A stretch of 64,000 bases of DNA from Escherichia coli. GTDB lineage: Bacteria; Pseudomonadota; Gammaproteobacteria; Enterobacterales; Enterobacteriaceae. Location of the stretch: the NCBI RefSeq assembly GCF_003334255.1, contig NZ_QOWU01000005.1; one strand, 5' to 3'. This document shows, piece by piece, positions 2,077 to 2,196 of this stretch. How positions within the stretch are numbered: position 1 is the stretch's first letter; each line of letters begins with the position of its first letter. A program made the translations under genes and the position numbers. The notes below the pieces were generated by a model, which saw only the letters and a list, made by a program, of their open reading frames with translations, was not told where the DNA came from and ran no database searches.

Positions 2077-2113
2077 GATAATAATTCTTAGTATTAATTC
2101 GGCAATCTGATTC

Positions 2114-2148
2114 TACTCCCCCCCAGTACCTGATACTACCCCCCAGTA
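2114..2148. promoter_or_regulatory. Two RcnR operator sites in the rcnA-rcnR divergent promoter region
   Basis: tactcccccccagta (2114-2128) and tactaccccccagta (2134-2148), matching the TACT-G6-N-AGTA RcnR operator type on the opposite strand. Confidence 0.7.
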
Positions 2149-2196
2149 GATTAATAGTGCTATGATTTTTCATATTCTTGTTAACCAGGTGTTGCC

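Follow-up and report, generated by a model that had tools for sequence, protein, structure and literature searches.

Type 1 operators of the CsoR/RcnR family contain a single G/C tract of 3–8 bp lying between AT-rich inverted repeats spaced 6–9 bp, and type 2 (CsoR) sites contain two short tracts at an 11-bp spacing and take two tetramers per site (PMC3902906). The type 1 class has as its type specimen the tandem operator recognised by RcnR, a repressor that responds to Ni(II) and Co(II). Two type 1 sites in this operator are bound by one RcnR tetramer each, with minor-groove contacts at the TACT/AGTA arms and an unbroken G/C tract of A-form character that is recognised through its shape (PMC3902906). 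Three papers (PMC3902906, PMC7055735 and PMC7105576), all of which cite Iwig & Chivers (2009, J Mol Biol 393:514), give the RcnR recognition motif as TACT-G6-N-AGTA and place two copies of it within the intergenic region of rcnA and rcnR. As Iwig & Chivers (2009) are summarised in PMC3902906, apo-RcnR occupies both sites and is released from them by Ni(II) or Co(II), and the K-12 DNA concerned is identical to that studied here. In addition, Blaha et al. (2011, Biochimie 93:434) are cited in PMC7055735 for the repression of both rcnA and rcnR from this shared operator.

Here, we analysed a 64-kb stretch of Escherichia coli DNA (the window), in which a first-pass annotation had described positions 2077–2196 as the 120-bp rcnA–rcnR divergent region, carrying paired RcnR operators with C tracts of different length, and had suggested that this difference could tune Ni/Co-responsive derepression. 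The boundaries of this region proved exact, as the interval corresponds to the gap between the start codon of rcnA (CAT at 2074–2076, minus strand) and the ATG of rcnR (2197). The coordinates of all features are collected in Table 1.

Table 1. Features of the rcnB–rcnA–rcnR locus and of its divergent regulatory region, in window coordinates
Feature	Position	Strand	Basis
rcnB (rcnA operon, downstream gene), 112 aa	695..1033	-	internal ATG of a 187-aa ORF
rcnA, Ni/Co efflux protein, 273 aa	1255..2076	-	ORF; NCBIfam NF007454; RefSeq annotation of identical DNA; K-12 feature table
rcnA–rcnR divergent intergenic region, 120 bp	2077..2196		sequence; K-12 alignment
Putative -10 hexamer TAGAAT of the rcnA promoter, overlapping the TACT arm of site 1	2110..2115	-	inferred from conservation
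RcnR operator site 1, adjoining rcnA, TACT-C7-AGTA = TACTCCCCCCCAGTA	2114..2128		sequence; published motif
RcnR operator site 2, adjoining rcnR, TACT-A-C6-AGTA = TACTACCCCCCAGTA	2134..2148		sequence; published motif
Putative extended -10 TGcTATGAT of the rcnR promoter, 9 bp downstream of site 2	2158..2166	+	inferred from conservation
rcnR, Ni(II)/Co(II)-responsive repressor, CsoR/RcnR family, 90 aa	2197..2469	+	ORF; NCBIfam NF011613

Specifically, the 90-aa product was assigned to the RcnR equivalog of NCBIfam, NF011613, with 197 bits (cutoff 138), and the 273-aa product scored 555 bits against NF007454, the nickel/cobalt efflux transporter (cutoff 195). The identical DNA stretch is named rcnR and rcnA by RefSeq in thousands of E. 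coli genomes. The gene downstream of rcnA gave no NCBIfam match, and its position and length match those of K-12 b2107 (rcnB). On the other side, rcnR is followed by thiM (2692–3480) and thiD (3477–4277). A TPP riboswitch was detected upstream of thiM, at 2561–2657 on the plus strand (RF00059, 71 bits, gathering score 54), and it is the known thiMD leader.

The strain from which the window derives is not K-12, because its rcnA encodes 273 aa (822 bp) and that of K-12 MG1655 encodes 274 aa (825 bp); the regulatory region is nonetheless identical in the two. The difference of one amino acid may sit in the His-rich loop of RcnA, and the rcnA gene of APEC E19025 is likewise 822 bp long.

Within the divergent region, the two elements that had been written as tact-c7-agta and tact-a-c6-agta do lie side by side, at 2114–2128 and 2134–2148, both written on the plus strand and with their starts 20 bp apart. 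When they are read on the G-rich minus strand, site 1 becomes TACT-G6-G-AGTA and site 2 becomes TACT-G6-T-AGTA, and both are exact fits to the published TACT-G6-N-AGTA. The difference in tract length and interruption to which the first-pass annotation had drawn attention, C7 against A-C6, is real; since the sites fit the motif with N = G and N = T, respectively, it comes down to the N position of the published motif, and is not a variant of the strain. By searching the 64-kb window on either strand with the pattern TACTNCCCCCCAGTA and allowing at most one mismatch, we recovered sites 1 and 2 only. The number of chance matches expected for this pattern is 0.00, and none of 100 dinucleotide-preserving shuffles contained any. 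A reading of the C tracts as a G-quadruplex or i-motif was rejected, as four or more runs are required and the region has two (C7 and C6).

The intergenic region was then set against that of K-12 MG1655 (NC_000913.3, stretch 2183000–2190000), which is also 120 bp long. Over positions 2057–2216 the alignment returned 160 identical bases out of 160, so that, as far as the sequence is concerned, the sites are identical to the reference, which is the sequence half of the outcome that the first-pass annotation had named as refuting it, and a strain-specific operator variant was rejected. The same region is widespread in the species: a 200-bp region around it was found in 5361 of 5426 complete E. 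coli genomes, the 61-bp stretch 2100–2160 is identical in 4411 of 5362, and the 41-bp core 2110–2150 is identical in 4837 of 5353. The variants sampled in E. coli fall mainly off the sites, as do G2109T and the spacer change G2132A.

By comparing the window operator with the described systems, it appears that it shares with the K-12 rcnA–rcnR tandem operator the sequence (100% over 160 bp), the place, the number of sites, their orientation and the 20-bp spacing, and that no difference separates them. With the type 1 class, of which the RcnR operator is the type specimen, its sites share a single unbroken G/C tract of 6–7 bp, TACT/AGTA arms 7 bp apart and a tandem layout, again with no difference. 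The occurrence of the published motif twice, the gene identities from NCBIfam and the identity with K-12 bear out the earlier proposal of paired RcnR operators, and no observation spoke against this identification. The defining features that the sequence can reveal are all present in the window: the motif, its two copies, its location, the cognate genes on either side and the identity to characterised DNA. In conclusion, the paired C-tract sites are the already characterised RcnR operator in its E. coli reference form, ordinary and not new. We put at roughly 95% the probability that the pair constitutes the canonical tandem Ni(II)/Co(II)-responsive operator of RcnR, whose binding is predicted here from the identity with K-12 DNA.

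To relate the sites to the promoters, we relied on conservation. On the minus strand, the left arm of site 1 belongs to AGTAGAAT. All 72 distinct sequences share A2110 (plus strand), a base that forms the last T of TAGAAT and is not part of the RcnR motif, and positions 2111–2113 are conserved at 76–90%. On the rcnR side, the TG-n-TA of 2158–2166 is invariant in E. coli, the IncHI2 plasmid, Salmonella, Hafnia, Vibrio and Rahnella. On these patterns, TAGAAT would be the -10 element of rcnA and TGcTATGAT the extended -10 element of rcnR. A simple promoter scan gave one minus-strand match, TTGCCG/TATTAT at 2105..2078, which disagrees with the conservation-based TAGAAT placement. It was rejected as the rcnA promoter, as it stops 2 bp short of the first codon of rcnA, leaving no leader, and as conservation favours TAGAAT. 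Two papers on Salmonella RcnR (PMC5709419 and PMC4528141) and a TSS atlas (PMC3415461) gave no usable site-level or TSS detail.

According to the literature, metal-free RcnR tetramers, one per site, repress the divergent rcnA(B) and rcnR transcription units, and the binding of Ni or Co releases RcnR and derepresses both genes. With the placements given above, RcnR on site 1 would occlude the putative rcnA -10 hexamer, and site 2 would lie over the -35 regions of both promoters and over the spacer of the rcnR promoter. Because site 1 overlaps the rcnA -10 and site 2 covers promoter regions of both genes, a single pair of sites would be expected to shut both promoters.

Two further elements were observed at the edges of the intergenic region. 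The sequence TGATAATAATTCTTA at 2076–2090 abuts and overlaps the rcnA start codon and, by our own count, agrees in 12 of 14 positions with the Fur 7-1-7 box (TGATAAT-N-ATTATCA), which makes it a candidate site. A palindrome-like core, GA[GT]AAT[GA]ATTCT[TC], was found in 45 of 78 species loci, and rcnA is included in the Fur-2 iModulon list (PMC10164565). In addition, imperfect 14-bp direct repeats occur 150 bp apart, AACCAGGCGTTTCC at 2033–2046 in the 5' end of rcnA and AACCAGGTGTTGCC at 2183–2196 just before the rcnR ATG. In Escherichia whittamii the 150 bp between those repeats are missing (about 1400–1440 of its locus), a gap that removes the first rcnA codons, both promoters and both operators; it is seen in a single assembly and could be an artefact.

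To follow the two sites beyond E. coli, we scanned for the RcnR protein in one genome per species. This yielded 80 loci with 76–100% protein identity from about 24 genera, ranging from Escherichia, Citrobacter and Salmonella out to Hafnia, Rahnella, Erwinia, Edwardsiella, Morganella and one Vibrio, and the intergenic region could be evaluated in 78 of them. The centre of site 1 is C7 in 73 of these 78 loci, the remainder having C6-T (two loci), C8 (two) or C6 (one). Site 2 is exactly TACTACCCCCCAGTA in 59 loci, has one or two mismatches in 9 more and is degenerate in 5 loci of Morganella. Where site 2 is recognisable, the base following TACT, that is the N of the consensus, is A in every case (68/68), and in 65 of the 68 loci the two sites start 20 bp apart. 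In the 5-bp spacer between the sites and in the flanks, the commonest base occurs in just 35–76% of the sequences. An alignment of E. coli, the IncHI2 plasmid, S. enterica diarizonae, Hafnia, Vibrio and Rahnella gave a comparable result, the two 15-mers, N included, being the only long invariant blocks of the region.

The same rcnR–rcnA module is carried, at about 75% identity, by about 413 large plasmids, mostly conjugative, of which one was retrieved and is of the IncHI2 type. The IncHI2 module (e.g. in pR47-309, where it lies beside pcoS) agrees with the window operator in both 15-mers, in the N of either site and in the 20-bp spacing. It differs in the remaining intergenic region, which is about 75% identical to that of the window, and in its RcnA, which is longer (a gene of 1116 bp).

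All together, these comparisons show that, throughout the Enterobacterales, each site has its own fixed N, which is C next to rcnA and A next to rcnR (plus strand), and that the N of each site is under purifying selection. This goes beyond PMC3902906, PMC7055735 and PMC7105576, as a small addition. The conservation of N argues that the two sites are non-equivalent; it is compatible with the tuning of the metal response suggested by the first-pass annotation, a tuning is not thereby shown, and a constraint from the overlapping promoters would also be compatible with the data.

The first explanation that we considered is that the two operators are functionally non-equivalent, with C7 and A-C6 giving a differing affinity, cooperativity or wrapping of RcnR, which would set the Ni/Co threshold or split the treatment of the rcnA and rcnR promoters. 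The retention of N at each site (C7 in 73/78, A in 68/68) next to a spacer and flanks conserved at 35–76%, and the recurrence of the same N pattern in the alignment of distant genera and a plasmid, speak for this explanation. Site 2 also tolerates more substitutions than site 1, as seen in the 9 loci with one or two mismatches and in the 5 degenerate sites of Morganella. Nevertheless, the published consensus writes the position as N, and overlapping promoters could account for the conservation, so that functional non-equivalence is, in our estimate, possible and clearly short of probable.

A further point concerns three species that have a single site of the C7 form, located at the usual place of site 2 relative to rcnR, in an intergenic region 20 bp shorter. 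The retention of the C7 form in these species was considered as a sign of functional non-equivalence, with C7 as the primary site. However, a repeat-mediated deletion would give the same outcome by chance, since its crossover target spans 10 bp on the right of N and 4 bp on the left, and only three species are involved. We therefore set aside the proposal of C7 as primary site, and the single-site species are not evidence of a site hierarchy, because a deletion between the two repeats would leave the same result. A separate arrangement was observed in Kosakonia arachidis, in which site 2 is interrupted (TACTACCTCCCAGTA) and the two sites are followed, upstream of rcnR, by a third element that resembles an operator, AAACTCCCCCCCAGTT; it may serve as a replacement or as an additional site for RcnR.

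The promoter constraint mentioned above can be made specific. The site-specific N could be kept for promoter function and not for RcnR, since A2138 would supply the initial T of TAGTAT, a weak -35-like hexamer of the rcnA promoter on the minus strand. The geometry is suitable, as the -10 TAGAAT (2115..2110) and TAGTAT (2138..2133) are separated by a 17-bp spacer, the invariant A2110 backs TAGAAT as the -10, and PrcnA is reportedly weak (PMC7105576). On the other hand, TAGTAT agrees with TTGACA at only 2 of 6 positions, and the C of site 1 is left unexplained, as that base falls near position -15 of the rcnA promoter, where it is no match for the TG of an extended -10. We thus regard a promoter origin of the conserved N as rather unlikely.

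The opposite possibility is that the difference between the sites is neutral, the N being truly degenerate and without consequence. The motif was published with an N at this position (PMC3902906, PMC7055735 and PMC7105576), and N = G occurs at site 2 in one natural E. coli lineage, that of O55:H7 RM12579 and, judged from its score, probably of TB182A. This is hard to reconcile with the conservation of N at each site over about 24 genera, in sequences whose spacer and flanks have diverged to 35–55%, and neutrality appears to us as doubtful as the promoter origin.

Site 1 also varies in the length of its tract. Among 5353 complete E. coli genomes, of which 4837 have the C7 core, exact matches to a C6 site 1 were found in 125 and to a C8 site 1 in 100, and alleles with one C more or less amount to about 4% of E. 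coli genomes. C6, which departs from the consensus 7-bp spacing of the arms, is present in every O111-labelled record seen (11128, RM9322, 110512 and FWSEC0005) and was confirmed by sequence in 08-3342; the O111:H8 strain 8234 has a one-base deletion somewhere in the 200-bp region. C8 is present in every O121-labelled record seen (RM8352, 16-9255 and FWSEC0006). As several separate assemblies agree, the O111 C6 and the O121 C8 are probably real, lineage-fixed alleles. A larger deletion within site 1 (TACCCCCCAGTA) was seen in strain L3Cip3.

These alleles raise the possibility that C7 is a slippage-prone contingency tract, whose changes in length would switch the regulation of rcnA by phase variation. 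The occurrence of C6 and C8 in the E. coli genomes counted above, their uniform presence in the O111- and O121-labelled records, respectively, and the finding of C6 or C8 also in Citrobacter sp. R56, Enterobacter sp. R1 and a Morganella are in line with it. However, 7 nt is short for a phase-variable tract, a tract of exactly C7 is retained by 73 of 78 species and, within E. coli, by about 90% of the genomes, and alleles fixed in a lineage are stable variants and not switching ones. Moreover, the scattered C6 or C8 cases in otherwise C7 clones (O157:H7 EC4115 and SS17) may be homopolymer sequencing errors, which they fit in 454, PacBio or ONT assemblies. Phase variation is therefore, in our opinion, very improbable.

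As a speculative extension of functional non-equivalence, to which we give a similarly low and tentative credence, N would not be degenerate, and the rcnA-side C7 (G7) and the rcnR-side A-C6 (G6-T), kept on Enterobacterales chromosomes and IncHI2 plasmids, would be functionally distinct, for example as a primary and an auxiliary site of different affinity or cooperativity, or as a compromise with the overlapping promoters; the C6 of O111 and the C8 of O121 would then shift the set-point of Ni/Co derepression.

In conclusion, our analysis re-identifies a textbook metal-sensor operator and, as it stands, matters little. If the two sites really have unequal affinities, they should be treated separately in synthetic rcnO designs and in models of the set-point, where a single generic site for each cell is assumed, and the tract-length alleles of O111 and O121 would be natural tests of such a difference. 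The N of each site, together with the 20-bp spacing, offers a modest refinement for the modelling and engineering of RcnR-based Ni/Co sensors.
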